Positions 21,636 through 55,819 of a stretch of 64,000 nt of DNA are shown piece by piece. The stretch is from Rhynchopus sp. YZ270_cl-10 (lineage: Eukaryota): positions 1,426,001 through 1,490,000 of the forward strand of contig OZ037833.1 in the NCBI GenBank assembly GCA_964035575.1, given 5' to 3'. The notes under the pieces are model-generated. The model searched no databases. It saw only the letters and a list, made by a program, of their open reading frames with translations, and had not been told where the DNA came from. Within the stretch, counting starts at the first letter, position 1. Each line of letters opens with the position of its first letter. The position numbers and the translations under genes were made by a program.

Positions 21636-21754
21636 GGATTCGGCCATACTCTGGTGAATACACCTCATCCCGCCTGATTTGAGAAGTTAAGCACCAGCAG
21701 GCCTGGATAGTACTGGCGTGGGTGACCAGCTGGGAAGTCCGGGTGCTTGAATCC
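21636..21754 (+). rRNA. 5S: 5S rRNA
   Basis: 119 nt, GGCCATAC..GAAGTTAAGC..TAGTACT..GGGTGACC..TGGGAA, T-run. Confidence 0.96.
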
Positions 21755-21864
21755 TTTTTCCTTTTCTTCTGTTGTATTAGGTGTGCACATTTGAGGACGT
21801 CCAGACCCTGACCCACCTCCAACAAGACGACCCTGTCTTGTATTCCGATGTTTGCTGTATGTTT

Positions 21865-22194
21865 GGGTGCTAAGTTAGTGTGCTACTTCGAAACCAAACA
21901 ACTCGTTCAGCAACAACAAAAACTTGAAAAAGACATTTCTTCCAAGGAAAATTCTTTTACAATTTTGTGTGAAGACCGGTCATGTTGCGGGCCCGATGTG
22001 GCCTGCGACGGACTACTCTCATATGATAGTAAATCCCGTACAATCTGTACAGAATATTACCATGACGATATTATTCTTACATTCGTGTAAACTAATCTTC
22101 CGATTGCGTTCTATTTCACACTTCAAATATTAGAACTGGATGTGGGGCTGCCAGTATACTGGTGGTCCCGATCCAGCACACAACGCAAGCACCC
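21865..22194 (+). ncRNA. Unknown RNA-1 variant B
   Basis: Diverged paralogue of 256-580 with same promoter spacing, terminal helix and compensatory changes; T8 follows. Confidence 0.7.
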
Positions 22195-22315
22195 AATTTT
22201 TTTTGCCGCCCGTCCACAGTCCATGTGTGCACCAGTGACCACAAAACAAACCCATAAATAAAAGTTAGGCTGGAAAGTCTTGGGGACCATAAAAGGAAAG
22301 CTCAGAAAAAAACCT

Positions 22316-22387
22316 AGGCCGCTGTGGGGATTGAACCCACGACCCCATCATTACGGATGATGTGCTCTACCACTGAGCTAAACAGCC
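22316..22387 (-). tRNA. tRNA-Thr: tRNA-Thr(CGU), C33
   Basis: Cloverleaf, loop TCCGTAA. Confidence 0.9.
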
Positions 22388-22463
22388 ACATTTTAGGGAG
22401 CAAGGTGTGAAAGCTCTGAGAACCAATTTACACAGGAGAAACAAATCAGAAGAAAAAAAACTG

Positions 22464-22535
22464 TGGACCCTGAGAGGTTCGAACTCTCGGCCTCCCGTAT
22501 GCGGAACGGGCGCTCTTCCACTGAGCTAAGAGCCC
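22464..22535 (-). tRNA. tRNA-Ala: tRNA-Ala(CGC), C33
   Basis: Loop TCCGCAT, G3:U70. Confidence 0.92.
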
Positions 22536-22611
22536 CACAATTATGATGATTCTTTAAAACAACAAGCTTTGGGCGAAAATAGTTTTAGATGATCACACAA
22601 CGAAGAAAAAG

Positions 22612-22693
22612 TGACGAGGGTGAGGTTTGAACTCACGCCCCCGAAGAGACTACGACCTGAACGTAGCGCCTTAGACCACTCGGCCACCTCGCC
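22612..22693 (-). tRNA. tRNA-Leu: tRNA-Leu(CAG)
   Basis: Loop TTCAGGT, long variable arm. Confidence 0.95.
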
Positions 22694-22814
22694 TTACTAG
22701 GCTTCTTCGTTAAAAATTTTTTCACCATTGCGGAGGTATGAAGGAAATTTTTGATGCGTGCTCTGTACATTTCAAAAGACCCCCTTCAAAGAAAAGAAGA
22801 TGGAGAGAAAGCAT

Positions 22815-22887
22815 GGCGCTATAGCTCAGTGGTTAGAGCGCTCGCCCAGTAAGCGAGAGGTCGAGGGTTCGATCCCCTCTAGTGCCT
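22815..22887 (+). tRNA. tRNA-Thr: tRNA-Thr(AGU), C33
   Basis: Loop CCAGTAA. Confidence 0.92.
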
Positions 22888-22971
22888 TGTTTTTTGTTCA
22901 CTGTTCTATTTCTAGTCCGTTGTTAGGTCACAAACAACCTGTTCACATGTTGTCCACCATGACTCAGTATT

Positions 22972-23090
22972 GGATTCGGCCATACTCTGGTGAATACACC
23001 TCATCCCGCCTGATTTGAGAAGTTAAGCACCAGCAGGCCTGGATAGTACTGGCGTGGGTGACCAGCTGGGAAGTCCGGGTGCTTGAATCC
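22972..23090 (+). rRNA. 5S: 5S rRNA
   Basis: Same as 21636-21754. Confidence 0.96.
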
Positions 23091-23139
23091 TTTTTACTAT
23101 TTTTTACTGAAGCACAAAGTTGTTCTGGATTGCTCACAC

Positions 23140-23720
23140 AGGATCAAAAACGCGAAAACGTTGGGAATATGTGTTATTTGGGTGCTCCTGAATGCATTAT
23201 GAGGTTGGACGATTTGATTGGAGCATCAGAAGTGCCCTGATCGATTTGGCGAAAATGACCCAGTAAACTGTCTTTTTTGCCTCTATTCTGCAATAGCAAA
23301 AATGGCCAAAAACGCAAAAACGTTGGGAAAATGGGTTATTTGGGCGCTCCTGAATGCATTGTGATGTTGTAACCACAAATTGGAGTATCACACATATCCT
23401 CAGTGAAACATGGAATTTTCCCATTTTTCACCGGATATTTCGTAACAGCAAAAATGGTCAAAAACGCGAAAACGTTGGGATAATGGGTTATTCGGCTGCT
23501 CCTGAATGCATTATGATGTTGTAAACGCAAATTAGAGCATCAGAAGTGTCCTAATCGAGGTGGCTAAAATGACCCAGCAAAATGTCATATTCACCGCTAT
23601 TCTGCAATAGCCAGATCGTCAAAAATGGGAAACTAACGGGAAAATGGGATGTTTGGATGCTCCTGAATCCATTATGAAGTCGTAACCGCAAATTGGAGCA
23701 TCACACATCATGCCCTAATC
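23140..23720. repeat. ~150-bp degenerate repeat related (inverted) to 19935-21290
   Basis: Recurring aacgttggga..tgggttatt..gctcctgaatgcattatga..ggagcatca. Confidence 0.8.
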
Positions 23721-23796
23721 ACTTACTCCCAGTGAAAATTTATTTGGGATGTGTGGAATGTACAGGACTTCCCCCTGCACAGCAAAAAGGCAATAA

Positions 23797-23878
23797 CGCG
23801 GACGGCAGGATTTGAACCTGCGCGGGCAGAGCCCAATGCATTTCGAGTGCACCTCCGTAACCACTTGGATACGTCCGC
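23797..23878 (-). tRNA. tRNA-Ser: tRNA-Ser(CGA)
   Basis: Loop CTCGAAA, long variable arm. Confidence 0.95.
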
Positions 23879-23957
23879 TACTGTTCCTTTGCAACTTCTG
23901 GAGGAGTCACGAAAGACGAGGAGAACTGAACAAGATTCATCGAACAAAAAAAGGCTT

Positions 23958-24030
23958 TGCTCCCGGCGGGGTTTGAACCCGCGATCCCAGGCTCATAAGA
24001 CCTGTGCCTTAACCACTAGGCCACGAGAGC
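23958..24030 (-). tRNA. tRNA-Ile: tRNA-Ile(UAU)
   Basis: Loop CTTATGA. Confidence 0.92.
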
Positions 24031-24056
24031 GTCGAGCCCTTTTATCCCTTGATAAG

Positions 24057-24127
24057 GCGACCGTGGTCTAGTGGCATGATGGACCCCTCCCAAGGGTTCG
24101 ACCCGGGTTCGATTCCCGGCGGTCGCA
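24057..24127 (+). tRNA. tRNA-Gly: tRNA-Gly(CCC)
   Basis: Loop CTCCCAA. Confidence 0.93.
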
Positions 24128-24177
24128 TAGCCTTTTTTAAGCCGGGCATGTAGAAAACATTGTTGGAAGTAATTAGA

Positions 24178-24250
24178 AGCAGAGTGGCGCAGTGGTCAGC
24201 GCGGTGGGCTCATAACCCACAGGTCATAGGATCGAAACCTATCTCTGCTA
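24178..24250 (+). tRNA. tRNA-iMet: Initiator tRNA-Met(CAU)
   Basis: A1:U72, GGG/CCC anticodon stem, ATCGAAA T-loop. Confidence 0.95.
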
Positions 24251-24351
24251 GATAACCTTTTTCGATGAACCCATTTTTTTGACCTGAAAAAAATTTTTTG
24301 CACACCAAAAAAAAGTTGGTCAGACCCTTGCCAACATCTCACTAAGTTTGG

Positions 24352-24424
24352 GCAGCTATCGTCTAGTGGTTAGGACGTCCGCCTTACACGCGGAAGATCG
24401 CTGGTTCAATCCCAGCTAGTTGTA
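24352..24424 (+). tRNA. tRNA-Val: tRNA-Val(UAC)
   Basis: Loop CTTACAC. Confidence 0.94.
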
Positions 24425-24516
24425 CTTTTCATTTTTGAATTTCCTTCACAATTTTTTACAGGTGGTGTTGACTGTGATGGGACACTTCCTTAAAGCGAGA
24501 AAAGAATATGAAACAA

Positions 24517-24589
24517 GCCCCATTGGCGCAATGGATAGCGCGTTGGACTTCTAATCCAAAGGTTGTGGGTTCGAGTCCCACATGGGGTA
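24517..24589 (+). tRNA. tRNA-Arg: tRNA-Arg(UCU)
   Basis: Loop CTTCTAA. Confidence 0.95.
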
Positions 24590-24704
24590 ATTCTTTTCTT
24601 TGTTTTTTATTTTTCAGATTCGGTGCGATTGAAGACTTTCTCTGGACGCATTCTTTTTAAAAACAGGCTTCATTGTATCCTCGGTAGTATAGAGGTCAGT
24701 ATTT

Positions 24705-27133
24705 GGCGACTCACCAGTACAGAATGGTGGAATCCAGCACAGAATGGTGACCCAAAAACCAGCACAGAATGGACGGACTCAGACTTGACCCACTTACAGG
24801 CCAAAAAAAATTTTTCTACACAAAAAATTTTTTTTTTCACAGAGCAAGATTTTTGAGAAAATTTTTCAGGCCAAAACTTTGTCTAACCTGAAAATGACAA
24901 AAAGTTTCACCTACACCAGCCAGTTAACACAACCTAGAACCAGATAACGCTGCCCGAACCCCGCGCACCCGCACAACCACACGAACCAGCTAGTGACCGC
25001 AAACCCGCGCACCCGTCAACCCGCAAACCCGCACAACCACCAGCCAGATAACGCAACCTAGAACCAGTAGGTTCCCGCACACCCGCACCCAAGAGCCAGC
25101 TTATCGACCACACGAACCAGCTAGGGACCGCAAACCCGCGCACCCGTCAACCCGCAAACCCGCACAACCACCAGCCAGATAACGCAACCTAGAACCAGCA
25201 GGGTCCCGTGCACCCGCACCCACCAGCCAGCTTATTAACCACACGAACAACAAAAACTGCACCCTCTGGGGTTTGAACCTCCGACCAGTAGTAATATGTA
25301 GTGTGCGGAACCTGTGTGGTAACCACTAGGACACTATCTCTACTTTAATGGAAATCCTTATTGCTGACGAAGCATCCAAGTGGGCACCACAAGGGTTGTT
25401 CACATTCTATTTTCCCAGTGGTCGGAGGTTCAAACCCCAGAAGCAGCAGTTTTTGTTTCCCCTAACAAATCCTTAAGGAAAAGTGAATTATGGATTGCTA
25501 AGGATTTCCCAGCCATTCCATTCTGTGCTGGTGTTTCAGAAAAGTGCACTTTTTCGTTACGAACCAAAAAAGTGCACTTTTCTGAATCACCAGCACAGAA
25601 TGGAATGGCTGGGAAATCCTTAGCAATCCATAATTCACTTTTCCCTAAGGATTTGTTAGGGGAAACAAAAACTGCTGGTTCTGGGGTTTGAACCTACGAC
25701 ACCGAAGAAACTCTTATGTTTGGAATCTGTGTGCTACACACTGGGACACTTAGTCCGCCTTAGTGAAAATCCTTATGCAAGACAAAGTATCCAAGTGAGT
25801 ACTACACAGGTTCCGTGCACTGTATGAAATTGGTGGTCGGAGGTTCAAACCCCAGAACCAGCAGTTTTTGTTTCCCTTAGCAAATCCTTAAGGAAAAGTG
25901 AATTATGGATTGCTAAGGAGTTCCCAGCCATTCCATTCTGTGCTGGTGTTTCAGAAAAGTGCACTTTTTCGTTACGAACCAAAAAAGTGCACTTTTCTGA
26001 ATCACCAGCACAGAATGGAATGGCTGGGGAATCCTTAAGGATCCATAATTCACTTTTCCCCTAGCAAATCCTTAGGGAAAAGTGAATTATGGATTGCTAA
26101 GGATTTCCCAGCCATTCCATTCTGTGCTGGTGTTTCAGAAAAGTGCACTTTTTTGGTTCGTAACGAAAAAGTGCACTTTTCTGAAACACCAGCACAGAAT
26201 GGAATGGCTGGGAAATCCTTAAGGATCCATAATTCACTTTTCCTTAAGGATTTGTTAGGGGAAACAAAAACTGCTGGTTCTGGGGTTTGAACCTACGACA
26301 CCGAAGAAACTCTTATGTATGAAACCTGTGTGCTACACACTGGGACACTTAGTCCGCCTTAGTGAAAATCCTTATGCAAGACAAAGTATCCAAGTGAGTA
26401 CTACACAGGTTCCGTGCACTGTATGAAATTGGTGGTCGGAGGTTCCAACCCCAGAACCAGCAGTTTTTGTTTCCCTTAGCAAATCCTTAAGGAAAAGTGA
26501 ATTATGGATCACTCAGGATTTCCCAGCCATTCCATTCTGTGCTGGTGTTTCAGAAAAGTGCACTTTTTTGGTTCGGAACGAAAAAGTGCACTTTTTTGAA
26601 ACACCAGCACAGAATGGAATGGCTGGGGAATCCTTAAGGATCCATAATTCACTTTTCCTTAAGGATTTGTTAGGGGAAAAGTGAATTATGGATTGCTAAG
26701 GATTCCCCAGCTATTCCATTCTGTGCTGGTGTTTCAGAAAAGTGCACTTTTTGGTTCGTAACGAAAAAGTGTACTTTTTTGAAACACCAGCACAGAATGG
26801 AATGGCTGCGGAATCCTGAGCAATCCATAATTCACTTTTCCTTAAGGATTTGTTAGGAGAGGAAAAAAAACTCCTGACCCGGGTATTGAATTTCGGATCA
26901 TTTTCTCAGTCAAAATGCCAGCACAGAATGGAAACGAAAAGCCAGTACAGAATGGAAATCAAAAATTTTCTGAAAAACCAGCACAGAATGGAAACGAAAA
27001 GCCAGCACAGAATGGAACACGGCTATAAGGCTCCGACTATTCCATTCTGTGCTGGTTTTTCGTTTCCATTCTGTGCTGGTTTTTTTGGGCCCATTCTGTG
27101 CCAAATTTTGCGGGCCTGTACTGGAGGATGGCC
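24705..27133 (+). mobile_element. Non-autonomous TIR DNA transposon, element A (2429 bp)
   Basis: Ends GGCGACTCACCAGTACAG / CTGTACTGGAGGATGGCC; TSD CAGTATTT at 24697 and 27134; subterminal CCAGCACAGAATGG repeats. Confidence 0.93.
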
Positions 27134-27141
27134 CAGTATTT

Positions 27142-28414
27142 GGCCATACTGACTTACATGGTTATGGGAAAACTTACATGTTTATGGAAAAAACTGACTT
27201 ACATGTTTATGAAAAACATGACTTACATGTTTATTAAGCCGGGGATTTTTGTGTACAAATAAACATGTAAGTCATGTTTTTCATAACCATGTAAGTCATG
27301 TTGAGATTTTTGCCGGTTCATAACCATGTAAGTCATGTTTTTCATAAACATGTAAGTCAGTTTTTTTTTGAGGTCAGGTCGACATTCAATACCCGGGTCG
27401 GGAACATATTTCTGCCACTTAGCCAAAAACTGACTTGTCTCGGGGGTTGAACCCGCTACCATAAGAAAAATTTTACCTGCGTGGTAACCACTCGGCTACA
27501 CTGTCTCATACTTCTCACACAGTTTTTCTGAAGAGGTCCTGACCAAATGCGGGTTCTAGGTTACGTTATCTGACTGGTGGTTGTGCGGGTTTGCGGGTTT
27601 GCGGGTGCGCGGGTTTGCGGGTTCGAGGTTGCGTTATCTGGCTGGTGTGGTAGTGCGGGTGCGCGGGGTTCGGGCAACGTTATCTGGTTCGTGGGTTAAT
27701 AAGCTGGCTGGTGGGTGCGGGTGCGCGGGAACCTGCTGGTTCTAGGTTGCGTTATCTGGCTGGTGTGGTTGTGCGGGTGTGCGGGTTGACGGGTGCGCGG
27801 GTTTGCGGTCCCTAGCTGGTTCGTGTGGTTGTGCGGGTGCGCGGGGTTCGGGCAACGTTATCTGGCTGGTGTGGTTAATAAGCTGGCTGGTGGGTGCGGG
27901 TGCGCGGGAACCTGCTGGTTCTAGGTTGCGTTATCCGGCTGGTGTGGTGGTGCGGGTGCGCGGGGTTCGGGCAACGTTATCTGGTTCGTGGGTTAATAAG
28001 CTGGCTGGTGGGTGCGGGTGCGCGGGAACCTGCTGGTTCTAGGTTGCGTTATCTGGTTCGTGTGGCTGATAGGGTTCTCGGGGGACAGTTACTTAGCTGG
28101 CTCGTGTGCTATGTTATGTGGGTGAACACCATCAGTATCCTTCCCCACGGACTAAGGGTAAAACACTTTGCACACAGACACAAAAATTTTGCCAGAGGTC
28201 TTCATAAGAAATTTTTCACAGGCAAAAAAAAAAATTTTTTTTTCGAACGAGCTTTTTCTGAAGAAAAATTTTTTTTGTGTAGAAAAAATTTTTTGGCCTG
28301 TAAGTGGGTCAACCTGAAAATCCATAAACATGTAAGTTTCCCACCATAAACATGTAAGTCATGTTTTTCCCAAAACATGTAAGTGGATCCCAAAACATGT
28401 AAGTCATGGTCACC
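27142..28414 (-). mobile_element. Non-autonomous TIR DNA transposon, element B (1273 bp)
   Basis: Ends GGCCATACTGACTTACATG / CATGTAAGTCATGGTCACC; TSD CAGTATTT at 27134 and 28415; shares GC-rich repeat module with A in inverted orientation. Confidence 0.9.
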
Positions 28415-28570
28415 CAGTATTTCCGCCTGTCACGCGGAAGACCCGGGTTCAATTCCCGGCCGGGGAACTCTTTTTATGTGTTGTGTTTTCTTCTGTTTCT
28501 CTCTTTTTCTCCGTTTTGGTTGTCCTTTCTCATCGTTCTCATTTCATTTCTAATATAAATCTGTTGGCAA

Positions 28571-28652
28571 GGCAGGATGGCCGAGAGGTCTAAGGCGGAG
28601 GACTCAAGTTCCTTTCTCTTCGGAGGCGTGGGTTCAAACCCCACTCCTGTCA
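28571..28652 (+). tRNA. tRNA-Leu: tRNA-Leu(CAA)
   Basis: Loop CTCAAGT. Confidence 0.95.
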
Positions 28653-28761
28653 CACTTTTTTCCTTCTGTTGTCCAGAATCAATTTTTCAAGGAATCAGTT
28701 TTTTCACAATTTGTTTTTTCTGTCCACATTTTTTTGTGACACAAAATCTCGAAAAAAAGAG

Positions 28762-28833
28762 GGGCTCAGCAGGGAATCGAACCCTGGACCTCTCGCACCC
28801 AAAGCGAGAATCATGCCACTAGACCACTAAGCC
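28762..28833 (-). tRNA. tRNA-Pro: tRNA-Pro(UGG)
   Basis: Loop TTTGGGT. Confidence 0.95.
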
Positions 28834-28954
28834 TTCGTTTTGTACCCATATTCCCATTTTCTTCTGTCCAAAATTTTTTTTATTTTGACACAGTTTTGGA
28901 TTTTGGGCGGTGAATGCACACACCATCTCGTTTCTATGAACCATATAAATGTCA

Positions 28955-29028
28955 GCACCTATGGTCTAGTTGGTTATGACGCCTCGTTAACACCGAGGAG
29001 GTCTCCGGTTCAAACCCGGATAGGTGTA
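28955..29028 (+). tRNA. tRNA-Val: tRNA-Val(AAC)
   Basis: Loop TTAACAC. Confidence 0.94.
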
Positions 29029-29314
29029 CACTTCTTTTTGTGTGTTTGTTTTTTGGCCTTGTATTGCCCATTTTTTTTGGGGGTGAGAGCACATCCGCAA
29101 ACACGTGTCATAATGCTAACGTTTGCGGCTGTGCTACTCTGCCAATTTTTTTGGATTTGGTGAAAAATGGTACCAAAATCAAATCCTGGAGCGATCAGTT
29201 TTTTGTTGCCGGAAGCACATGCGGAAATGGGTGGGAATTCCTTAACATTTCCACATGTGCTTCCTTTTCAGTCCTTTCCATCTCGAACGAACTTTGATCA
29301 GTGGGAACATGAAA

Positions 29315-29620
29315 CAGACTGACTTATGTGTTATGACATAGCATCTCAGCTCAACCTGATTGCAGGCCAAAAAATAATTTTCGGCCAAAATTTTTTTTAA
29401 GTTTTTGTTGCCAGAAGCCATATGCTGAAACTTGCACAACACACAGTGAGCTGTGCGCCCACAACGGAGGGCCTGTTCTGTGCGCCCACAATGGGGGGGT
29501 GTTCTGTGCGCCCATATCGGGGTCTGCGCTGTGCGCCCGACGTACCAAAAAATTTTCGTCCAAAAAATTGGGATGTAGTAGCACAGCGCACTTTTCCAAT
29601 GTAGTAGCACAGCGCACATT
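29315..29620. mobile_element. Decayed relative of elements A/B with TGTGCGCCC repeats
   Basis: ctgactta motif and caggccaaaaaa..tttt module as in A/B; no clear TSD. Confidence 0.45.
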
Positions 29621-29657
29621 GAAAATTGTTATTAGAGTTGAGGGGAAAAAAGAGAAG

Positions 29658-29674
29658 TGCCTCCACCTGGGATT

Positions 29675-29723
<49 letters not shown>

Positions 29724-29730
29724 AAGAGGC
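29658..29730 (-). tRNA. tRNA-Phe: tRNA-Phe(GAA)
   Basis: Loop CTGAAGA. Confidence 0.95.
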
Positions 29731-29808
29731 CTTGTTTTAGGGTATGTATATTTTTTACACGGCCAACATTTTTTGAACAGGCCAAAGCCAAAGTAGTAGA
29801 AAAAGTAT

Positions 29809-29881
29809 TGGTCGTGACAGGGCTCGAACCTGGGACCGTTGGCTTATTAGACCAATGCTCTACCGACTGAGCTACACGACC
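29809..29881 (-). tRNA. tRNA-Ile: tRNA-Ile(AAU)
   Basis: Loop CTAATAA. Confidence 0.95.
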
Positions 29882-29969
29882 GACAATAATGACGAAAGGA
29901 ATCGCCAACCTGGGGTACGCACTATTTTTTTCTATTGTGCACAAAACTGTACATTTTTGCATGACATCA

Positions 29970-30590
29970 TCTTACCGATGTTCCACAATAGCAAAATGGT
30001 CAAAAATGCGAAAACCTTGCGAAAATGGGTTATTTGGGTGCTCTTGAATCCATTATGAGGTTGAACGATGTGATTAGAGCATCAGAAGTACCCTGATCGA
30101 GTTGATGAAAATGACCCAGTAAACTGCCTATTGTACTGCCATTCCACAATGGCAAAAATGGTCAAAAAGGCGAAAACGTTGGGAAAATGGGTTTTTTGAG
30201 CTCTCCTGAATGCATTATGAGGTCAGAATCGCAAATTGGAGCACCAGAAGTGCCCTGATCGAGTTGGCGAAAATGACCCAGTAAAATGACTTTTGTGCCA
30301 CCATTCCACGAATGGCAAAATGTTCAAAAATGTGAAAATATTGGGAAAACGGGTTATTCGGCTGCTCATGAAGCCATTATGAGGTCAGAATCGCCAATTG
30401 GAGCATCAGAAGTGTCCTGATAGAGTTGGTTAAAATGACCCACTAAAATGCCCATTGTACCACTATTGCGCAAGAGCAAAATGCTCAAAAATGTGAAAAC
30501 GTTGGGAAAATGGGTTATTCGGATGTTCCTGAACGCATTATGAGGTCAGACTCGCCAATCGGACCATCACACACATCCTCATCGCTAAAA
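29970..30590. repeat. ~120-bp degenerate tandem repeat of the same family as 23140-23720
   Basis: Recurring cattatgaggtcagaatcgc..ggagcatcagaagtg..aaatgacccagtaaa. Confidence 0.8.
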
Positions 30591-30689
30591 GACCCTCAAA
30601 ATCACAGGTACGACGCAATGGTGTCAGTTCATATTTTTGTGTGTTGACTGTCCCAACCAAAAAATAATCAACAAAATATGGCAAAAAAA

Positions 30690-30761
30690 TGGACATTGAG
30701 GGGTTCGAACCCTCGGCCTCCCGTATGCAGAACGGGCGCTCTACCACTGAGCTAAACGCCC
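30690..30761 (-). tRNA. tRNA-Ala: tRNA-Ala(UGC), C33
   Basis: Loop TCTGCAT, G3:U70. Confidence 0.92.
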
Positions 30762-30874
30762 CTGATAAATGTCCCTCAAGGAGAGGTACTTGGGGCACTT
30801 TCTGTTCGTCTTTTTGTCAATTTTTTTCAAGAACGCAACAAGCCTTGAAATTGACTCTTTCCTTTAAAACGAAT

Positions 30875-30946
30875 GCCCGCCTAGCTCAGCGGTAGAGCGT
30901 TGGACTTTTAATCCAATGGTCGTGGGTTCGATCCCCACGGCGGGTG
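30875..30946 (+). tRNA. tRNA-Lys: tRNA-Lys(UUU)
   Basis: Loop CTTTTAA. Confidence 0.95.
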
Positions 30947-31023
30947 CCTACTTTTTTGGATCAATTGGATTCTCTTTTTTGTGCTCATTTTCAGGATCTG
31001 GGGCGTTGTGCTTCCTCAACTAT

Positions 31024-31105
31024 GCTGACGTATCCAAGTGGTTACGGAGGTGGACTTGAAATCCACTGGGCTCTGCCCGCGCAGGTTCGAACCCTGCCGT
31101 CAGCG
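31024..31105 (+). tRNA. tRNA-Ser: tRNA-Ser(UGA)
   Basis: Loop CTTGAAA. Confidence 0.95.
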
Positions 31106-31219
31106 TTCTTTACCTTTTCGTTTGATTTCTGTGATCTATGTTTTGTCATCAAATGCAGAGATTGAAGATGTGTGTGACAAAGCTCCAAAAAATATTGAAA
31201 ACACTTGGAAAAAGAAAAG

Positions 31220-31291
31220 TTCTCCCACGCGGGTTTGAACCGCGGCTACTGGATTCAAAGTCCAGGGTGCTAACCACTACACCATAGGAGA
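31220..31291 (-). tRNA. tRNA-Gln: tRNA-Gln(UUG)
   Basis: Loop CTTTGAA. Confidence 0.94.
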
Positions 31292-31393
31292 GATAATCCG
31301 GATCCTTTTGTTCACACAACAACGATGGAAAATTTGGTGGTTGCAGGTACACACAAGTACCCCACAATGATTCTTTGATTTAAGTTAATATGA

Positions 31394-31466
31394 GCCTCCC
31401 TAGCTCAGTCGGTAGAGCGCAAGGCCCTTAACCTTGTGGTCGCGGGTTCGAGCCCCGCGGGAGGTG
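31394..31466 (+). tRNA. tRNA-Lys: tRNA-Lys(CUU), C33
   Basis: Loop CCCTTAA. Confidence 0.92.
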
Positions 31467-31692
31467 CTTTTTGTATTGATACCTGAATTTTTCTGAATTT
31501 TTTTTATTTGTTGGAAAACATGGTGTGTTGGTCGTTGTGCAATGAGCCCGCCATCGTGCGAAATCGTGCCCAAAAAAAATTTTTGGTGGTCACAATTGCG
31601 ATGATTTTTGGTGATCCCACCCAGACCAAATCGCACTAACTAAGTTGTTAAGCAAAGTACAAGCTTCGTCCTAAGTACTGACAGGTAATTAA

Positions 31693-31774
31693 GCGGACGT
31701 ACCCAAGTGGTTACGGGGCTCGCCTGCTAAGCGAGTGTGCTCTGCATGCGCAAGTTCGAACCTTGCCGTTCGCG
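31693..31774 (+). tRNA. tRNA-Ser: tRNA-Ser(GCU)
   Basis: Loop CTGCTAA. Confidence 0.95.
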
Positions 31775-32027
31775 TTTTTTATACACTGCATTGATACCTT
31801 TTTTCATTCTTTTCTGAACTTTTTCAAACTCAAAAAAAAACCTGAAAAAATCTGTTTTATCTTCAGGTCAAGAATCTCCAAGTTAGGACAACATTCAAGA
31901 TGTTTGGTTTTTTTGGTGAGACAACCTTGGAAATCCTGAACAATAGTTTCAACATCAAGATGACACACAACTTGGGTTTTTAGCTCAAAATCAAAAATAG
32001 AGTCAAAAACTCAAAAAAATGAAAAAT

Positions 32028-32100
32028 CTCCTCCTGTTGGGTTCGAACCAACGACCTGCAGGTTAACAGCCTGACGCGCTACCGACTGCGCCAAGGAGGA
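32028..32100 (-). tRNA. tRNA-Asn: tRNA-Asn(GUU)
   Basis: Loop CTGTTAA. Confidence 0.95.
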
Positions 32101-32214
32101 TCTGATTGTTAGCGAAGACAGCATTTACATGGGGACCTTATTCAAAACGAAAACACACACAAGGAATGATGGAAACTTATGGCCTTGGTACGAAGAGAAT
32201 GCGAGAGAATTCGT

Positions 32215-32286
32215 GGCTCGGTGGTCTAGTGGCATGATTCTCGCTTAGGGTGCGAGAGGTCCGGGGTTCAATTCCCCGCCGAGCCC
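32215..32286 (+). tRNA. tRNA-Pro: tRNA-Pro(AGG)
   Basis: Loop TTAGGGT. Confidence 0.95.
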
Positions 32287-42633: not shown

Positions 42634-43005
42634 TCACCTAAAATAAGGCCAGTTTGCGATCTTCTTGGAGTATCTTGGTGTCCAGTACAGTGTTTCTGGC
42701 ATTGTGGACTTGCATGTTGTACAGGGCAACTGCCTGGGAATTAGTCCCACTTCTTGCAACAGTTTAGCTATTTCGGCATCCCCAGCGCGCATGATATTAA
42801 GCACAGGAGAATTTTTGGCTGCAGGTGCGCACGTCCCTTCTGGGGAGTATGGATGCCTCTTCCTCAGTTTTTGTTGTGCATTTTTGCACCTTTGCGCTCA
42901 TCTCCATCTCACCAAAGGTGAAATTGTGAATGCTGTCATGCAGCATTCACATTCCAGCATGCTCCTGTAGGCTGAAGCACCGTCGGTGGTGTAGTCTCCC
43001 CTCAT
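42634..43005 (-). pseudogene. Possible decayed Zn-ribbon transposase fragment (Merlin/IS1595-like)
   Basis: Frame MRGDYTTDGASAY..CECC..RWR*AQRC..AKLLQEVGLIPRQLPCTTCKSTM..WPYFR*; two TGA stops. Confidence 0.35.
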
Positions 43006-43122
43006 TTCTGCTCTCTGGATAGTGCAACAAACACAGGGATACAAGACAGGGTTGTCTTGTTGGAGGTGGGTCAGGGTCTGGATGTCCTAAAACCACACAC
43101 CAACACGGAAGAAAAGCAAAAA

Positions 43123-43526: not shown

Positions 43527-43688
43527 GGCGGGTTTGTGCAAAGCACAGCACCGCCGCTGTCAAAAATTTCACTGTGCAAGCCAGCCGAAGCTAGTGCCAC
43601 CAGTATCCCCTGCGCAGTGCAATGCAAGGGCCACTGGTGTGTCGACGCCCTTGTTGATCAGGTCAGACACCAGTAAGGTATGTAACCT
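43527..43688 (-). ncRNA. U1: U1 snRNA with variant 5' arm
   Basis: Loop I GATCAACAAG, loop II ATTGCAC, helix H TTACTG/CAGTGA, Sm site AATTTTTG; start 43681-43688. Confidence 0.9.
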
Positions 43689-43759: not shown

Positions 43760-43874
43760 CAGATGAGACACAAAGGCCCCTTCAAAAATTATGCTTTCAC
43801 ATAGTGGCTCTTACCCACGGTCATCTTTAGTAAAAGGCGAAAGATGAGTTCGATATGGGCAAGAACCGTGATAT
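43760..43874 (-). ncRNA. U5: U5 snRNA
   Basis: CATCTTT-CGCCTTTTACT-AAAGATG loop I, Sm site AATTTTTG. Confidence 0.94.
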
Positions 43875-44024: not shown

Positions 44025-44234
44025 AAGCTGTAAGTGGAAGGGCTGTGCCTGGTACTCTTCCCTGCGCCATACAGGGGAGAGACAAAACAATACAAGAAGT
44101 ATGTGACAATCATCGCAAGTGCTCATGCTGCACATGCCCAACCTATGTCATCATCCAGCTTTGGTCTTGTGCCGAAGAAAACAATCTTCAACACGAATGC
44201 ACTCAAAAACAGATCCTGTGTAGAGTACAGTCTT
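44025..44234 (-). ncRNA. U3: U3 snoRNA, full length
   Basis: AAGACTGTACT..AGGATC, GATGATGA, GAGC, CGATGA, terminal stem AAGCTG/CAGCTT. Confidence 0.88.
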
Positions 44235-44395: not shown

Positions 44396-44537
44396 ATTCT
44401 TGCGCTCGGGATAATTCCATAAGCAATGACCAAATAGGGACGCTGTGGAGAGATTGCTGGTTGAAAACTACCCAATTCCCGCCATGGGCCGCTTCGGCGT
44501 TGCCACATTGGCAATTTGTGTAGCTGCTTCGGCGGCC
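44396..44537 (+). ncRNA. U4: U4 snRNA
   Basis: Same as 7169-7310. Confidence 0.92.
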
Positions 44538-44690: not shown

Positions 44691-44879
44691 ATACCTTCTC
44701 GGCCTTTTGGCTAAGATCAAGTGTATTATCTGTTCTTATCAGCTTAATATCTGATACAGTGCCTTGTGCACTGATGATATTAACGCAATTTCTCATTGGG
44801 GTGACGGGTCGCCAGGGCAACCTGGTCCGTTCACACATGTTGCCCTGGAGCTGCACAACATCCAGGAGTGGCATACCCT
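44691..44879 (+). ncRNA. U2: U2 snRNA
   Basis: Same as 7464-7652. Confidence 0.96.
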
Positions 44880-44961
44880 CTTTTTTAACAAAACAAAAAC
44901 AAACATACCATACATACCATACATACACAGTGGTTACCACTGTGATGTGGGTTATTAAAAA

Positions 44962-45092: not shown

Positions 45093-45142
45093 AGGCAACA
45101 ACACAGACACAGGGGGGGTGCTGGGTGGGAAAATATAAAAAA

Positions 45143-45467
45143 GGGTGCTTGCGTTGTGTGCTGGATCGGGACCACCAGTAAACTGGCAGCCCCACATCCA
45201 GTTCTAATATTTGAAGTGTGAAATAGAACGCAGTCAGAATTAGTGTTACACGCTAATGTAAGAATAATCATCATGGGTAATATTCTGTACGAACGTACGG
45301 GATTTACATCATATGAAAGTAGTTCCGCCTTGGGCCATATCAGGCCCAACAGCAGGACCGCATCATAAAAATTGTAAAGAATTTTCTTAAATAGAAAGGT
45401 CTTTTCAAGTTTTAGCTGTTGCTGAACGAGTTGTTTGGTTTCGAAGTAGCACACTAACTTAGCACCC
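45143..45467 (-). ncRNA. Unknown RNA-1 variant A, copy 4
   Basis: Same as 256-580. Confidence 0.7.
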
Positions 45468-45588
45468 AAACATAGGGAGAGTATGGGAAAACAAGACAGG
45501 GTTGTCTTGTTGGAGGTGGGTCAGGGTGACACACACTTTGTACATGCATCATATGTGTGAATGTTTTTTCTCATGGTGACGTAAAAAA

Positions 45589-45701
45589 GGCCAGTCTCTT
45601 TCGAGGCTGGCCATGTTTGACAAAGTTGTGTGAGAAGAATATAATCTTCATGCTTCCATACCAATGAAGTACAGAAACTGTAGCTTTAGAAATCGTTGGT
45701 T
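45589..45701 (-). ncRNA. SL RNA: Spliced leader RNA
   Basis: 40-nt exon + GTATG. Confidence 0.95.
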
Positions 45702-46008
45702 GCCCTTTTTCTCTACAATGTTCTAAGTGCCAACATGTTCTGGGAATCATGCCATATGTATCATTATTATGGTGGGTTTTTTTTCTAACATAGCCGTAGA
45801 GTGGCTTATAAACATACCTAAGGATGCCCAATGTGCTCGAAAGTCCAAAAATCTTGGGAATACGGGATATTTGGGCTCATTTGAGTCAATTGCGTGGTCG
45901 TACAATTTAATCTGAGCATTACACATATCCTAATCACCAAAATATTCGAAGAACATGGGAATCATGTGTGTTTTTTGGGTTTGCACAAGGTGATGTTAAC
46001 GTAAAAAA

Positions 46009-46120
46009 GGCCAGTCTCTTTCGAAACTGGCCATGTTTTGACAAAGTTGTGTGAAGAATATAATCTTCATGCTTCCATACCAATGAAGTACAGAAACTGT
46101 AGCTTTAGAAATCGTTGGTT
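46009..46120 (-). ncRNA. SL RNA: Spliced leader RNA
   Basis: 40-nt exon + GTATG. Confidence 0.95.
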
Positions 46121-46442
46121 GCCCTTTTTCTCTACAATGTTCTAGGTACCCACTTGTTCTGGGAAGCCTTCTGCCAATGTCTATAATACGGTTGCTTTTT
46201 CGTACCTGACATCTTGGTCACTGTGAAGGTTCTACATAAAAATATCCTTAAGTGTGATCCTACAGAAGGATATTCGACAGAGTCAACAGTGGCTTCTGAA
46301 GGGGAACAAGTGTCACAAATATGGTTTTGCAGGCGATATAAAAATGGGGTGCAGTAAGCACTTGTGTGTTATGTCATGTGTGAATCGTGTGTGTTTTTGG
46401 GTTTGCTTCTTGTGCACAAGACGATCATGCTAACGTAAAAAA

Positions 46443-46554
46443 GGCCAGTCTCTTTCGAGACTGGCCATGTTTGACAAAGTTGTGTGAGAAGATATAATCT
46501 TCATGCTTCCATACCAATGAAGTACAGAAACTGTAGCTTTAGAAATCGTTGGTT
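46443..46554 (-). ncRNA. SL RNA: Spliced leader RNA
   Basis: 40-nt exon + GTATG. Confidence 0.95.
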
Positions 46555-49500
46555 GCCTTTTTTCTCTACAACGTTCTGAGTACAGACGTGTCCTGGGAAG
46601 CATGCCAGTAGTGTAAAAAATATGATGGTTTTTTTGTACCTAACATCTTGTACACTGAGAAGGTTCTGCACAAGTGGAAGCCTATATAAGGATATTCATA
46701 AGAGTCAAAAGGGGCTTCTGAAGGGGTATATGGGTAGTATGAGCTCATATGAATCCATTAAAAGCGTCTATGGCATGATCTAAGCATCACATAATTTCTG
46801 AAATCAATACCAACCACAATTTACGGCTATTTTTCCAGCAATAGCCGTATCATGGCTTATAACCATACCTAAGGATGTCCAATATGCTGGAAAAGTTAAT
46901 AATCTTGGGTGTATAGGGTTTTTGGGCACATTTGAGTCAATTGCGGGGTCTTACGATTTAATCTGAGCATCACACATATCCTAATCACCTATATAATCGA
47001 AAAACACATACAAAATGACCTACATAGCCGTAAAATGACCCAAATGTGCATATTCGGGTTGAAATTTCATTTTTTCGGAAAGTTTTTTTTTCTCAACAAT
47101 TACATGGGTGAGTTCCGAGTACATTATGGGGTCGTAAGTTTTTATTCAAGCATCACACATTATGTAGAATAATTTATGCCATACAATGTTACCAAAAAAA
47201 GTCGATTTTTGGTCACTTTTTCAAAAATATGAAAATTCGATTTTTGGGTACTAGATAGGTCTTTCCGGTGCAAAAACGACCGTTAAATGGATTCTCCGGG
47301 GTCCTAAGGCCCCAAAAATCACTTTTGGACACACGGGCAATATCCCAGTATACCCTAGGAAATTGGTGGGAACCCAAAAATTGGCCTCAAAATCCGACCA
47401 AAACCAAGGTTTCTGTAGAGGTACATGTGAACCTCATGTGTGTTCTGGAGACCCATTTTGTTTTTAAAAGTGAATCTAAATAGCCAAAAATTTAAAACTC
47501 TTGTAGCGCATTCGGAATAGAGGGGGTATTCGCGAAAACCTGTGCGAAACATTTATCAATTCAGGTCTGACCCACATGGTCATGACCCCATATTTTGGGT
47601 GCGGAAAACACCCTATCTGTTGACCTACCGGCTTGTATGCCTGTATACCTGGTTGGGTCAACTTTTTGAAAATTTCCTGGGCCATATACCCTATTTGGGC
47701 CCCCTGAATCCATTGCGACATCGTTTTTTCACATCCGAGTGAAAACTAATATATAGGATAACCCATGGGTATGGGTACCTCGCTCAATACCCCTAAAATC
47801 AGTGCTTTTGAAAATGACCCTATGGAAAAATGTATCCAAAATATTGAAACATGTTCTCCTGGCATCTGCAACACGATATTTTGGGCCCCCTGGGCCCCGG
47901 GGGCCCTACGGGCCCCCATATTCGCGAAAAGTTGGGCATCCCAGCTAGTGGGTCGGTACTGGGTATACAAACATCCCCCCAAAAAGTGAGATTTTGACCC
48001 CCCAAAAATGGCCATTTTTTTACTCCCCGGGACCTTCTCAGGTGTGTATTCGGACCCTCTCGTGGTCTTAAACCGGATTTTTGGGGCCCCCACACCCTGG
48101 AATACCCCCCATAGTGTCGTTTTTTCACCCGCAGGGCCGATTTTTTAGAAAAAATTTGGTTTTTAAGGAACAACATTTACCCTGCGACACCTTGAAAAAC
48201 AGGTGATTTTTGCCTTTTTCAGTTGTGTGTGTGCAGTGCCGAATTCCCCAGGCTTGGTGAAAGTTGTGCCTCCAATACCCCTATGTGGGTTGGAAAAATC
48301 AAATAAAGATAAAATTTTGAGGCAGCCTGGGGGTGTGCTATGGTAAACAATTTGTGTGTGTAAAAATACCCCTAAAAAACACCCTAAAAATGGCTGTTTT
48401 TGGCCTATTTTTGGGGGTCGCCTGAGCTATTTTTTTTATTGTTTTGGCTTTTCCTGGGACCTGAAAATAGGGTCCTGGGCCCAATATGTCCCAATGAGGC
48501 CATTGGAATATCGATTTTTTCCAGATATGGGCCTCCTAGACCGAAATTTTTGATTTTGGTGTTGCAAAAATTTTCGAAAATCCTGAAAAGTGCCCAAAAA
48601 CACGTAAAAACACGTGTATAGGCACACCCTATCGGCCCCCAGCATTGCCCAGGATTGTTGCAAATTTTCCCTGCATGGGGGCCCTCCGGGCCCCCTGGAC
48701 CCATTGCGACCCGATTGGTTCACATTCCTGGGAAATTTGGTCCCTAAGACACATACGTGGTTAACATACCCCTGAAAAACACCCTATTTTTGACCCTAAA
48801 AAACACCCTATTTTTGACCCTGAAAACATGATTTTAGCAAATAGGGCAACTAGTTTGGTGATCCAGCGACCGACTCATGGGCCCAGTATGTCCAACAGGG
48901 CCATATGTTTGGTAAATTTTACCGGGGGCAAGGGGATGTACAAAAAAAAAGTGGATTTTTTACCTTAAAAAAATGGCCAAAAATAGGCCAAAAATGGCCA
49001 TTTTTCGGCCATGTGACCCCCACAGCAACCCTATATAGACCCCAAAAAACCTAATATTTTTTTCCCAGCGATGTGTCCTGGGGGCCCTTCGGGCCCCCAG
49101 GACACATCGCAACCCCGTTTTTTCAAAAAGTTGGCCCTACGGGCCAACTTTTTGAGGTGGCCTGTAGGGTGACCCCTTCAAAAAGCTGGAACCCGGATTT
49201 TGGGGTCAGGGGTCCCTTTATGCACTTTTATGTATAAAAAAATGTCTGGGGCGAGAAAATGCAAATTTTTGCCTGCAAACACACTGCATACTACTACAGG
49301 ACCATATTCCATCTTATCAGGAAAAATTTCGGAGGTGTTAGTCATAAAAACAATTTAAAATTTTTTGAAAAAACATGAGATCTGGATAAAAGTTTTGACT
49401 GTACCTGTGGAAGGTGGGATTTTGCCTGTGTTTTGACTTTTTTTTTCAGTAAATAAACTTCTACTCATCTCCGGAGGCCGTCCGAGGTCGCAATTAACTC

Positions 49501-50216
49501 ATTTTGACACTTTAGGGCCATATACCGCCCGTTTTTTCAAAAAGTTGAAAATTTTGGCCCCCAGGATTGGGTACAGCGTGTACTGAACCCTGATTTTCGA
49601 AAAATCTCAACTTTTGAAATTCGTCACTTATGGCAGCATGTATCTGACACCCAATTTTGACTTTTCCCGTGAATCCATTCTGGTGCATATACACTATCTG
49701 GCACCCCTGAGTCCATTGCGGGGTCGTTTTTTCAAAAAGTCGACCGGACTAATACCTAATATGACCCTGGGTATAGCGTACCGTCTCAGAAACACCCCAA
49801 AATCAGTGTTTTTGAAGGGTTCTCACAGCTAAAATCGATGAAAAAATGTCAAAATCACTTTCCCGTGACCCAATAGCGTGAAATATGGCCCATGTGGGCC
49901 CCCAGGACCTATAACACCCCCAATCGGTCGATTCCATGCATATTTCACACCCCCAGATATATGTGCCCATGGGGTGCCAGACCCCAAAATCATGATTTTT
50001 TCATGATTTTTGGCCCGATGCACTGACCTGCAGGGCCATACCGTCTACCGGGGCAACCATATTTTTGAAAAATCGGCCTTGCATCGGGCCCAGTATGTCC
50101 CACAGGGTATGTTGCCCCAAATTCAGGTCCCCGCACAAGCCAAACCAATATTTTAAAATCGATTTTTTTGAAAAAAATATTTTTGAAAAAAAATCGTGAT
50201 TTTTGGGATTTTGGTG

Positions 50217-51398
50217 ATTTTTACAGTTTTGCACACCCTGAAAATCGATTTTTTCGGCTCCGCCGGTGAAATATCGACATAATTTAGGTATGTTATGTGC
50301 ATAATATACCCATTAGAGCCCATTCAAGTCACATTCCGACCATTTTTCGTGAAAAAATGCAACTTTTTGTCACCGTGACCCCCAAAAATGACGATTTTTT
50401 GGTCGATTTTTTCGGCCAAAAATTTCGTACCACAGGGCCATACCATATACTGGGATTATCAACTTTTTGAAAATACGGCCTGGTATTCGGGTGTATATGT
50501 CCCATGGGGCCCATAGTAACCTTACTGGGTCATGCCCAAAGCCAATCTTAATAGTAAAATTCGATTTTCTGTGAAAAATATTTTCACCAAAAAATCGTCA
50601 TTTTTCCGATTTTCGTCATTTTTACAGTTTTGCACACCCTGAAAATCGATTTTTTCGGCTCCGCCGGTGAAATATCGACATAATTTAGGTATGTTATGTG
50701 CATAATATACCCATTAGAGCCCATTCAAGTCACATTCCGACCATTTTTCGTGAAAAAATGCAACTTTTTGTCACCGTGACCCCCAAAAATGACGATTTTT
50801 TGGTCGATTTTTTCGGCCAAAAATTTCGTACCACAGGGCCATACCATATACTGGGATTATCAACTTTTTGAAAATACGGCCTGGTATTCGGGTGTATATG
50901 TCCCATGGGGCCCATAGTAACCTTACTGGGTCATGCCCAAAGCCAATCTTAATAGTAAAATTCGATTTTCTGTGAAAAATATTTTCACCAAAAAATCGTC
51001 ATTTTTCCGATTTTCGTCATTTTTACAGTTTTGCACACCCTGAAAATCGATTTTTTCGGCTCCGCCGGTGAAATATCGACATAATTTAGGTATGTTATGT
51101 GCATAATATACCCATTAGAGCCCATTCAAGTCACATTCCGACCATTTTTCGTGAAAAAATGCAACTTTTTGTCACCGTGACCCCCAAAAATGACGATTTT
51201 TTGGTCGATTTTTTCGGCCAAAAATTTCGTACCACAGGGCCATACCATATACTGGGATTATCAACTTTTTGAAAATACGGCCTGGTATTCGGGTGTATAT
51301 GTCCCATGGGGCCCATAGTAACCTTACTGGGTCATGCCCAAAGCCAATCTTAATAGTAAAATTCGATTTTCTGTGAAAAATATTTTCACCAAAAAATC
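50217..51398. repeat. 401-bp tandem repeat, ~3 copies
   Basis: Period 401 (50329, 50730, 51131). Confidence 0.95.
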
Positions 51399-51424
51399 GA
51401 CTTTTTTCAAAATATTTCTCAGTT

Positions 51425-53053
51425 AGACAGTGTGTGATGCTCGGATCTGAGCGTACGACCCCGCAATTGACTCAGATGTGCTCAAATACCCCATATACCC
51501 AAGATTTTTGCATTTTCGAGTGAAAAGAAGGTTCGTACAGAGGTCATATGCCTGTGTACAGGTTTATTTGCCTGTAACCCCTATGTTTGAGCACCGGCTA
51601 AGTTGTAGAGAGGGCCTGATACTCGGAATTGACCGTGCGACCCCGCAATTGACTCAGATTGGCCCAAAAACCCTATATACCCAAGATTTCTTCATTTTCG
51701 TGCAAATTTGAGGTATTTAGATATGGTTATATGCATGTTACACCAAAATACAGGTGTTTGTTGCACCTGTAAAATTTGAGACATTGTGTGATGCTCTAAT
51801 CTGATCGTACGACCCCGCAATTGACTCAAAAATGCCCAAAAACCCCATATTCCCAAGATTTTTGCATTTTCGAGCATATATGAGCCATTTAGATATGATT
51901 ATTAGCCATTTTACCCAATATACAGGTGTTTGTTGCATAGCTAAAATTCTAGACATTGTCTGATGCTCGGATCTGACCGTACGACCCCGCAATTGACTCA
52001 GATGTGCCCAAAAACCCTATATATCCAAGATTTCTTCATTTTCATGCGTATTTGAGACATTCAGATATGGTTATATGCATTTTACACCAAAATACATGTG
52101 ATTGTTGCTTTTTTGAAATTCTAGACATTGTGTGATACTCGGATCTGATCGTGCGACCCCGCAATGAACTCAAATGTGCCCAAAAAACCCATATTCCCAA
52201 GATTATTGCATTTTAGAGCATTTTTAAGCTACTTACATGTGGTTATTAGCCATTTTACCCAAAATAGACATGTTTATTGCATAGTTGAAATTCTAGGTAT
52301 TGTGTGATGCTCGGATCTGATCGTGCGACCCCGCAATTGACTCAGATGTGCCCAAAAAACCCATATTCCCAAGATTTTTGCATTTTCGTGCAAATTTAAG
52401 GTATTCAGATATGGTTATATGCATGTTACACCAAAATACAGGTGTTTGTTGCACCTGTAAAATTCTAGACATTATGTGATGCTCAGATCTGATCGTACGA
52501 CCCCGCAATGAACTCAGATGTGCCCAAAAAACCCATATTCCCAAGATTTTTGCATTTTCGTGCAAATTTAAGGTATTCAGATATGGTTATATGCATGTTA
52601 CACCAAAATACAGGTGTTTGTTGCACCTGTAAAATTCTAGACATTATGTGATGCTCAGATCTGATCGTACGACCCCGCAATGAACTCAGATGTGCCCAAA
52701 AACCCCATATTCCCAAGATTTTTGCATTTTAGAGCACATTCTAATTGCTTAGATAGGGTATAAAGGCATTTTGCCCATATTTTTGCGACATTTTACCGAT
52801 TAGGATACTTCTGATGCTCCAATCAAATCGTCCGACCCCGCAATGGATTCAGAATGGCCCAAAAACCCTATATTCCCAAGATTTTTGCACTTTTAAGGGT
52901 TTCTGACATCCTTAGATAGGATAAAGAGGCATTTTCAGGTATTTTGATAAACGGACATTTTGTCTATTAGGATATGTGTGATGCTCAGATTGATTCATCT
53001 GACCTCATAATGGATTCAGGAGCCCCTAAATATGCCATTTTCCCAAAAATTTC
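51425..53053. repeat. ~151-bp degenerate tandem repeat
   Basis: Longer version of 19935-21290. Confidence 0.9.
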
Positions 53054-53398
53054 TCACTTTTGACAATTTTGAAGATTCTCAGAAAGAGTGAGGAGACAAA
53101 AAAATGAGAAAAATCTGGAAAAACCAAAATATATTATTCGTCTCAGGTGTTGAACCCGGGACCGAAAGAATATCGGACCACAGTACAACACACTAGGATT
53201 TTCTGACGCAAGTATTTTTTTAGTTTTTTATGGATGCGCACAGCTAAGAACCGGTCTGACAATTTAGATCTATTTTTCGGTGTATTTATCCAGTTGGTCA
53301 CCCGCGCCAGTACTATCCAGGCTTGGAGGTGTCTAACTTCTCAGGTAAAAACGGACTGGTAATAAGTCTTCCCAGCTTTTCCACCCAGACCTATTATT

Positions 53399-55793: not shown

Positions 55794-55819
55794 GTCGAGC
55801 CCTTTTATCCCTTGATAAG

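Follow-up and report, generated by a model that had tools for sequence, protein, structure and literature searches.

Small-RNA genes of the repeat unit

The 64,000-nucleotide stretch of DNA analysed here (the window) contains a tandemly repeated unit that encodes tRNAs (transfer RNAs), the 5S RNA of the ribosome (rRNA), spliceosomal RNAs, spliced-leader (SL) RNAs and further small RNAs. Measured from its first 5S gene to the corresponding gene of the next copy (21636 to 53399), the unit is 31,763 bp long, the length reported in the first-pass annotation. That annotation had described a single tandem cassette combining a near-complete decoding set with spliceosomal RNAs, which is borne out by the gene content and by one junction. 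The four 5S genes, U1, U5, U3, U4, U2, SL and unfamiliar RNAs that it had placed in the unit were confirmed, with three SL genes and two unfamiliar RNAs, here named X and Y. The features, including small nuclear RNAs (snRNAs) and a small nucleolar RNA (snoRNA), are as follows.

21636..53398, one macro-repeat period, 31,763 bp, shrinking to 24,133 bp when the three blocks inserted into tRNA genes are taken out
53399..64000, the following unit, cut off by the window end
22316..42284, tRNA block, 27 genes on the minus and 21 on the plus strand, 48 genes of 45 types, 12.3 kb without insertions
21636..21755 (+), 22972-23091 (+), 42367-42486 (-) and 43122-43241 (-), 5S rRNA genes (Rfam)
21527-21580 (-), 5S fragment
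21860..22194 (+), RNA X paralog 2, about 335 nt long, sharing 87% identity with paralog 1 and preceded by motif B
42556..43032 (-), putative RNA Y, about 470 nt long, preceded by motif B and having a T-run
43527..43685 (-), U1 snRNA (Rfam, 68 bits with a gathering threshold of 69.5, E 1e-15)
43763..43873 (-), U5 snRNA (Rfam)
44025..44234 (-), U3 snoRNA (Rfam E 1e-6, below the gathering threshold)
44396..44535 (+), U4 snRNA (Rfam)
44691..44881 (+), U2 snRNA (Rfam)
45139..45472 (-), RNA X paralog 1
45590..46554 (-), three SL RNA genes with a 40-nt exon
46760..53061, non-coding spacer at the end of the unit, with 401-bp and 172-bp tandem repeats

After the three insertion blocks had been cut out in silico, and with initiator and elongator tRNA-Met (iMet and eMet) counted separately, ARAGORN reproduced the 48 tRNA genes of 45 types claimed earlier, with Asn, Asp and Lys-CUU present twice and the remaining types once. 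A second apparent Ser-AGA gene proved to be Tyr-GUA with an 11-nt intron when introns were allowed. As a working set, the number 48 stands only in part: as sequenced, the Asp, Pro-CGG and Glu-CUC genes are broken by an element with 8-bp target duplications, leaving 45 intact genes of 43 types in the first unit (ARAGORN: 76 tRNA genes across the window, 45 intact within 21636-53398). The median gap between tRNA genes is 97 bp.

The standard eukaryotic tRNA set comprises 46 types. Leu-UAA is the sole standard anticodon absent from the unit, and TTA the sole codon without a reader under standard wobble. A hidden gene for tRNA-Leu-UAA or selenocysteine tRNA (tRNA-Sec) was sought in the window with Rfam and relaxed ARAGORN settings and none was found; the long-intron calls of relaxed ARAGORN were rejected as spurious. 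If 48 genes were drawn at random from 46 types, 45 or more types would be represented with P = 1.7e-14, and none of 200,000 simulated draws reached 45 types (maximum 39). According to the genome paper of Diplonema papillatum (PMC10161547), tRNA-Leu-UAA is absent genome-wide from that organism and Lys-CUU is its most copied tRNA. The absence of Leu-UAA from both is expected if the unit represents the whole repertoire.

All 48 tRNA genes have a run of four or more T within 25 nt downstream, which is found upstream in 8/48. A motif (A) lies at -48 to -51 upstream of each of the five U genes (U1, U2, U3, U4 and U5), with a shuffled rate of 0.005 per 95 nt; a strict match also precedes two of the five SL genes examined, and variants precede the rest. 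A second motif (B) precedes U6, the signal recognition particle (SRP) RNA, both RNA X paralogs and RNA Y. Because both motifs were derived from the same genes in which they were counted, only their constant position is independent evidence. To judge from these signals, the genes are likely transcribed singly, each with its own promoter. A polycistronic operon was rejected on the grounds of the mixed strands and individual terminators.

We consider it probable, on gene content and signals read from the DNA alone, that the unit belongs to the main small-RNA locus of its host, amplified and homogenised like ribosomal DNA (rDNA), with each gene having its own promoter. Alternatively, it could be a minor amplified island, with most working tRNA and snRNA genes dispersed elsewhere, as the absence of U6, SRP and tRNA-Sec from the flagged unit might suggest. 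Such an island would give no reason for exactly one gene per type, nor for a gap at just the one type that is missing from the whole genome of a relative, and its genes all score as intact and carry terminators; we give this alternative very little credence.

RNA X folds far more stably than its shuffled versions (z = -6.6), and both sides have changed in 2 of the 86 base pairs between its paralogs, whereas the fold of RNA Y is weaker (z = -1.7). Apart from chance matches, neither hit any Rfam family up to an E of 10, neither had a match in the 64 metagenome loci described below, and inspected by eye, neither showed the conserved regions of RNase P/MRP or a telomerase template of the form TTAGGG. 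The branch-point pairing motif of U2 carries one change from its usual form; this change is not in the U2 of a related metagenome locus (L032, below).

Repeat junction, inserted elements and upstream sub-array

Apart from its insertions, the following unit matches the first with 0 differences across 4,767 + 6,461 bp (11,228 bp). In the following unit the first Asp gene is intact and the second carries an insertion from 62921; these differences between neighbouring units carry exact target duplications. Within the window, the tRNA block shows a single tandem junction. The inserted elements are as follows.

24705..27133 (+), element A, non-coding, 2,429 bp, inside tRNA-Asp at position 20-27, with an 8-bp target duplication
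27142..28414 (+), element B, non-coding, 1,273 bp, in tandem with element A in the same tRNA-Asp, with the same 8-bp duplication between them
37081..39509 (+), a copy of element A identical to 24705-27133, inside tRNA-Pro(CGG) at position 20-27
39648..41114 (+), a shorter element A, 1,467 bp, inside tRNA-Glu(CUC) at position 57-64
62921-64000, element A in the second Asp gene of the following unit at position 20-27, cut off by the window end

The four recent copies of element A all lie inside tRNA genes, three at position 20-27 and one at 57-64. As tRNA genes make up 14.9% of the unit, four of four has a chance probability of 5e-4 (7e-3 within the tRNA block). An older, short copy (35842-36249) lies outside tRNA genes and has no duplication. 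Element A is hairpin-rich and ends in 18-bp imperfect inverted repeats (14/18 matching). Elements A and B hold B-box-like tRNA fragments. Candidate miRNA matches in the window were rejected as hairpins of the inserted elements.

Dada DNA transposons insert in multicopy small-RNA genes, including tRNA genes near the A box, as described in the accessible parts of PMC3706591 and PMC8869645. The elements of the window resemble them, as described there, in inserting inside tRNA genes near the A box, in having a short target duplication and in stacking two families at one site. They may differ in the 8-bp duplication (7 bp should the last T, which is shared, be part of the element) and the imperfect terminal inverted repeats, where Dada has 6-7 bp and no inverted repeats, and they differ in hitting three tRNA types at two sites. 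Dada elements have a DDE transposase with a DxxH motif; in the inserted elements no transposase-sized open reading frame (ORF) was found. They behave like Dada elements and may belong to them.

Two other explanations of the repeat were weighed. An assembly artefact, in which two haplotypes or repeat copies were joined in tandem, would fit the 0 differences across 11.2 kb and the repeat-rich spacers at the junction. Against it, the copies are told apart by clean insertions flanked by target duplications, and the content of the cluster holds whatever the status of the junction, part of this content being present in four sequencing runs (see below); we regard an artefact as highly improbable. An equally improbable source is an extrachromosomal multi-copy circle, as for the rDNA of Euglena or Entamoeba, assembled as a concatemer: Euglena rDNA is carried on plasmid-like circles according to PMC2784804 (consulted in part), and a self-contained unit would suit an episome, but the units differ in their insertions and the upstream modules are rearranged, unlike the result of re-reading one circle.

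Upstream of the unit, ARAGORN found no tRNA genes in about 20 kb. The features of this region are as follows.

1..19946, sub-array without tRNA genes, in which spacer, retroelement fragment, truncated U3, U4, U2, RNA X and SL are repeated, with 11 SL genes
15917..18135 (-), two copies of SRP RNA-SL-U6 within the upstream SL run (Rfam)

The first-pass annotation had assigned U6 and SRP to the SL sub-array of a previous unit. The SL run is where it was said to be, but the stretch that contains it is a separate sub-array rather than a full unit, and the array is thus modular. Window counts are also unequal (14 SL, six 5S, three U2, three U4, two U6, two SRP, one U1 and one U5), so the near 1:1 dosage proposed earlier is restricted to the tRNA types; it is not supported for the whole toolkit, with U6 and SRP outside the unit and insertions knocking out single tRNA genes copy by copy.

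An all-in-one single-copy cluster that was recently duplicated once or twice, real but without a large homogenised array, would account for the two tRNA blocks visible in the window, identical apart from insertions, and for the absence of a tRNA block from the left 20 kb. However, four tRNA genes disrupted in about 1.5 units would be a heavy load for two copies, and the adjoining U4-U2-SL module is present at least three times. We judge such a duplication unlikely.

Several smaller observations concern the spacers and the sub-array. Related 172-bp and 162-bp satellites and the 401-bp repeat punctuate the unit (19938-21300, 23144-23708, 29981-30569 and 4838-6228), and a rearrangement junction lies at 19938-19946. 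The 3' third is absent from the upstream U3 copies (6875-7007 and 14150-14282), which are likely pseudogenes that travel with U4-U2. Additional copies of motif A, with no recognised RNA behind them, lie between U6 and the next SL gene (16540-16663 and 17861-17984, minus strand). Two 372-bp fragments (6229-6600 and 13504-13875, minus strand) match residues 859-963 of a 2,138-aa reverse transcriptase protein, P0004, at 94% identity; this protein has an endonuclease-like motif further downstream. The fragment in the SL sub-array is likely a remnant of a CRE/SLACS-type retroelement.

Host affinity and related cassettes

We take the leader labelled 'Euglenozoa 14' to be that of Diplonema. The 40-nt SL exon of the window is about three changes from this leader as printed in PMC3795323, and the D. 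papillatum leader is given as 39 nt in PMC10161547. The 5' end of U1 is complementary to G/GTATGT donors, matching the (G)/GTATG donor sites of three Diplonemidae in the portion available of PMC12621601. The SL exon, the U1 5' end and the lack of Leu-UAA back the euglenozoan affinity suggested before, and the host is likely a diplonemid other than D. papillatum. The window holds no gene suited to an 18S rRNA or protein phylogeny.

Parts of the locus also turn up in sequencing runs. At least half of the sampled words of a stretch of the tRNA block were present in 7 of the 24 runs listed (shares below 0.2 were left out, and the list had no RNA run, from which nothing follows on expression), and the stretch 42300-44670 was covered in all four runs examined, from four studies (30, 30, 27 and 24 of 30 bins). 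In one run, U1-U5-U3 is covered by a contig of 778 nt (2 differences) and RNA Y by one of 508 nt (0 differences); two deep runs have mixed sites near U5 that are absent from the window. Contig depths (in one run 37.8 for the 5S contig and 9.5-14.4 for four neighbours; single contigs above 20,000 in another run) fit a multi-copy array but, as they do not measure copy number, were given no weight as evidence.

A C at position 33 (C33) occurs in 11 of the 48 tRNA genes (22316-42118), representing 10 types and with intact anticodon stems: Thr-CGU, Ala-CGC, Thr-AGU, Ala-UGC, both Lys-CUU genes, Arg-CCG, Gly-GCC, Arg-ACG, eMet and Ala-AGC. The iMet of the unit has U33. In PMC9023262, as far as it was available, C33 is mentioned only for the initiator tRNA.

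A metagenome scan with a U1-based pattern gave 0 matches. A second pattern, tRNA-Lys-CUU with C33, gave 64 loci on unbinned contigs, two of which (L012 and L013) are on one contig; the scan is silent on cassette frequency because this query selects for C33. Among the 64 loci, 49 have at least two tRNA genes and 16 at least eight. Three are window-like, with tRNA identities of 0.87-0.91: L032 holds 27 tRNA genes of 26 types and U2 within 2.9 kb, L059 links 5S, U3 and tRNAs, and L027 has six tRNAs. The comparison with relatives that the first-pass annotation had called for thus shows that L032 keeps the one-of-each plan, with Lys-CUU twice, and that its order is scrambled (1 shared adjacency with the window, 1.4 expected), which rules out a conserved gene order.

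Most of the other loci form a second group, with about 0.73 tRNA identity to the window and with the dinoflagellate leader printed in PMC7245778 (seen in part). Among them is L013 (1-14071), with 39 tRNA genes of 38 types including Sec, SRP, three 5S genes, U6, U1, U5, U2, U4 and SL. L009 (1-10267, with L008 and L016) and L063 (1-16266, with L026 and L050) each carry 36 tRNA genes of 36 types together with U1, U2, U4, U5, 5S and SL. These three are likely from dinoflagellates, to judge from their sequences. All three lack nine U34 anticodons (UAC, UAG, UCC, UGA, UGC, UGG, UUC, UUG and UUU), leaving GAA, CAA, AAA and GGA without an obvious reader within the dinoflagellate-like cassettes. An apparent second Asp gene in the dinoflagellate-like contigs is actually Tyr with a 12-nt intron, so the Asp duplication is not common to them. 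The last part of L009 is a 96% copy of its own first kilobase, with a 7.9-kb period, which is consistent with a tandem unit or with satellite flanks and counts further against a merely recent duplication in the window.

C33 is found in 17 of 27 tRNA genes in L032, 5 of 39 in L013, 9 of 36 in L009 and 10 of 36 in L063, counts in which the Lys genes were preselected by the query. The sets differ, and such shifting would fit either tolerance or C-to-U editing.

Interpretation and known systems

If the unit is part of an amplified and homogenised main locus, as we favour, unequal crossing-over and gene conversion would keep it uniform, as in rDNA. The tRNA and 5S genes would be expressed from internal RNA polymerase III promoters and the other RNAs from upstream motifs. 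Array copy number would scale all tRNAs jointly, and selection would bar the loss of any type from the homogenising unit and retain no spares, giving one of each. Higher demand would be met by extra genes within the unit (Asn, Asp, Lys-CUU and the four 5S) and by separate sub-arrays (U4-U2-X-SL and SRP-SL-U6). With redundancy between units, transposons that target tRNA genes could persist; the breakage of two essential-looking types (Pro-CGG and Glu-CUC) in the first unit fits such redundancy.

Several points weigh against this reading. The window shows just one tandem junction and about 1.5 tRNA blocks, no tRNA-Sec was found in it, and perfect identity across 11.2 kb would also result from one recent duplication or from a haplotype joined by mistake. 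Independent coverage is limited to 42300-44670 and no single contig spans the whole snRNA stretch; one covered run may be the window's own source, and the mixed sites of the deep runs may reflect alleles rather than paralogs. As gene order is not conserved with L032, the order carries no function. The breakage of Pro-CGG and Glu-CUC is no proof of redundancy, because their codons are readable by wobble from Pro-UGG and Glu-UUC, which remain.

Most eukaryotes have their tRNA genes scattered or grouped in small clusters, with copy numbers that track codon demand. Block amplification of a one-of-each unit would give near-flat tRNA dosage, a natural test of supply by gene number versus promoter strength or turnover, and such a unit would be nature's counterpart of the tRNA neochromosome built in yeast, so far as its published description was available. 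Diplonemids and dinoflagellates are the two big groups of protists with SL trans-splicing, and euglenozoans and dinoflagellates are a known case of convergence, to which the cassette is a candidate addition. We put forward, as a tentative and somewhat doubtful proposal, that this is an undescribed design, an rDNA-like small-RNA super-locus (whole decoding set, 5S, spliceosomal and SL RNAs) that arose independently in diplonemids and dinoflagellates, in which flat dosage uncouples tRNA gene number from codon usage and a C33-to-U editing enzyme repairs C33. The locus further reveals two unassigned RNAs behind a putative promoter of the U6/SRP type, a family of transposons that target tRNA genes, and C33 in many tRNAs; high-copy units of this kind could be used to mark lineages in metagenomes.

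The unusualness claimed for the cassette stands in that no such one-of-each unit was found in the literature, a search outside which most subscription papers and the structural-RNA supplement of D. papillatum fell; it is tempered by the one-of-each cassettes of the relative and the dinoflagellate-like contigs. The supplementary files of PMC10161547 gave no match (the main PDF supplement was not covered), and two surveys (PMC2888827 and PMC13578239) describe mixed islands but, in the parts consulted, no one-of-each tandem unit; PMC12787238 and PMC13063481 contributed nothing further. Dense, near-complete arrays of 20-43 tRNA genes are also known from bacteria and phages (PMC4758250 and PMC8421152); as described there, these are prokaryotic and accessory, with no snRNA, SL or tandem amplification.

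D. papillatum, which likely belongs to the same protist group, likewise has SL, 5S and U2 in tandem repeats and lacks Leu-UAA, but its repeat is a three-gene alternation with a 39-nt exon, and the main text of PMC10161547 describes no tRNA cassette. Here the sub-array consists of truncated U3-U4-U2-X-SL, and 5S lies with the tRNA block. By our own arithmetic, the 211 tRNA genes of D. papillatum would equal about four to five copies of a 48-gene unit.

Trypanosomatid RNA polymerase III clusters, at 26-31 loci of 2-10 tRNAs each and not in tandem, similarly combine tRNA, 5S and U snRNA genes on mixed strands with short spacers, and also hold 7SL (PMC2695483 and PMC2784804, in the sections available). 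The unit shares their strand mixture and spacing; it differs in holding 48 tRNA genes, in being repeated, and in lacking flanking protein-coding units, the only protein-like ORF recognised being the retroelement fragment. Trypanosomatid U3 needs a head-to-head tRNA gene, as the same sources describe, whereas the U genes here have their own motif at -48 to -51 and there is no tRNA gene at 42285-54078. In Euglena, U3-U5, U3-tRNA and SL-5S linkages are described in PMC2784804.

Entamoeba has 20-26 separate arrays with 1-6 tRNA genes per unit, which together contain nearly all of its tRNA genes (PMC2652664). As in those arrays, tRNA genes here lie in tandemly repeated, homogeneous units (one junction, 11.2 kb identical), and some Entamoeba units carry 5S and one small RNA in the portions of that paper available. 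Unlike this split set, one unit here holds 45 tRNA types in 48 genes with five U RNAs and SL. In Symbiodinium, an SL trans-splicing protist, U1, U2, U4, U5 and U6 lie in one cluster, for which the available text of PMC4083563 mentions no tRNA set; L013, L009 and L063 embed such clusters among 36-39 tRNA genes.

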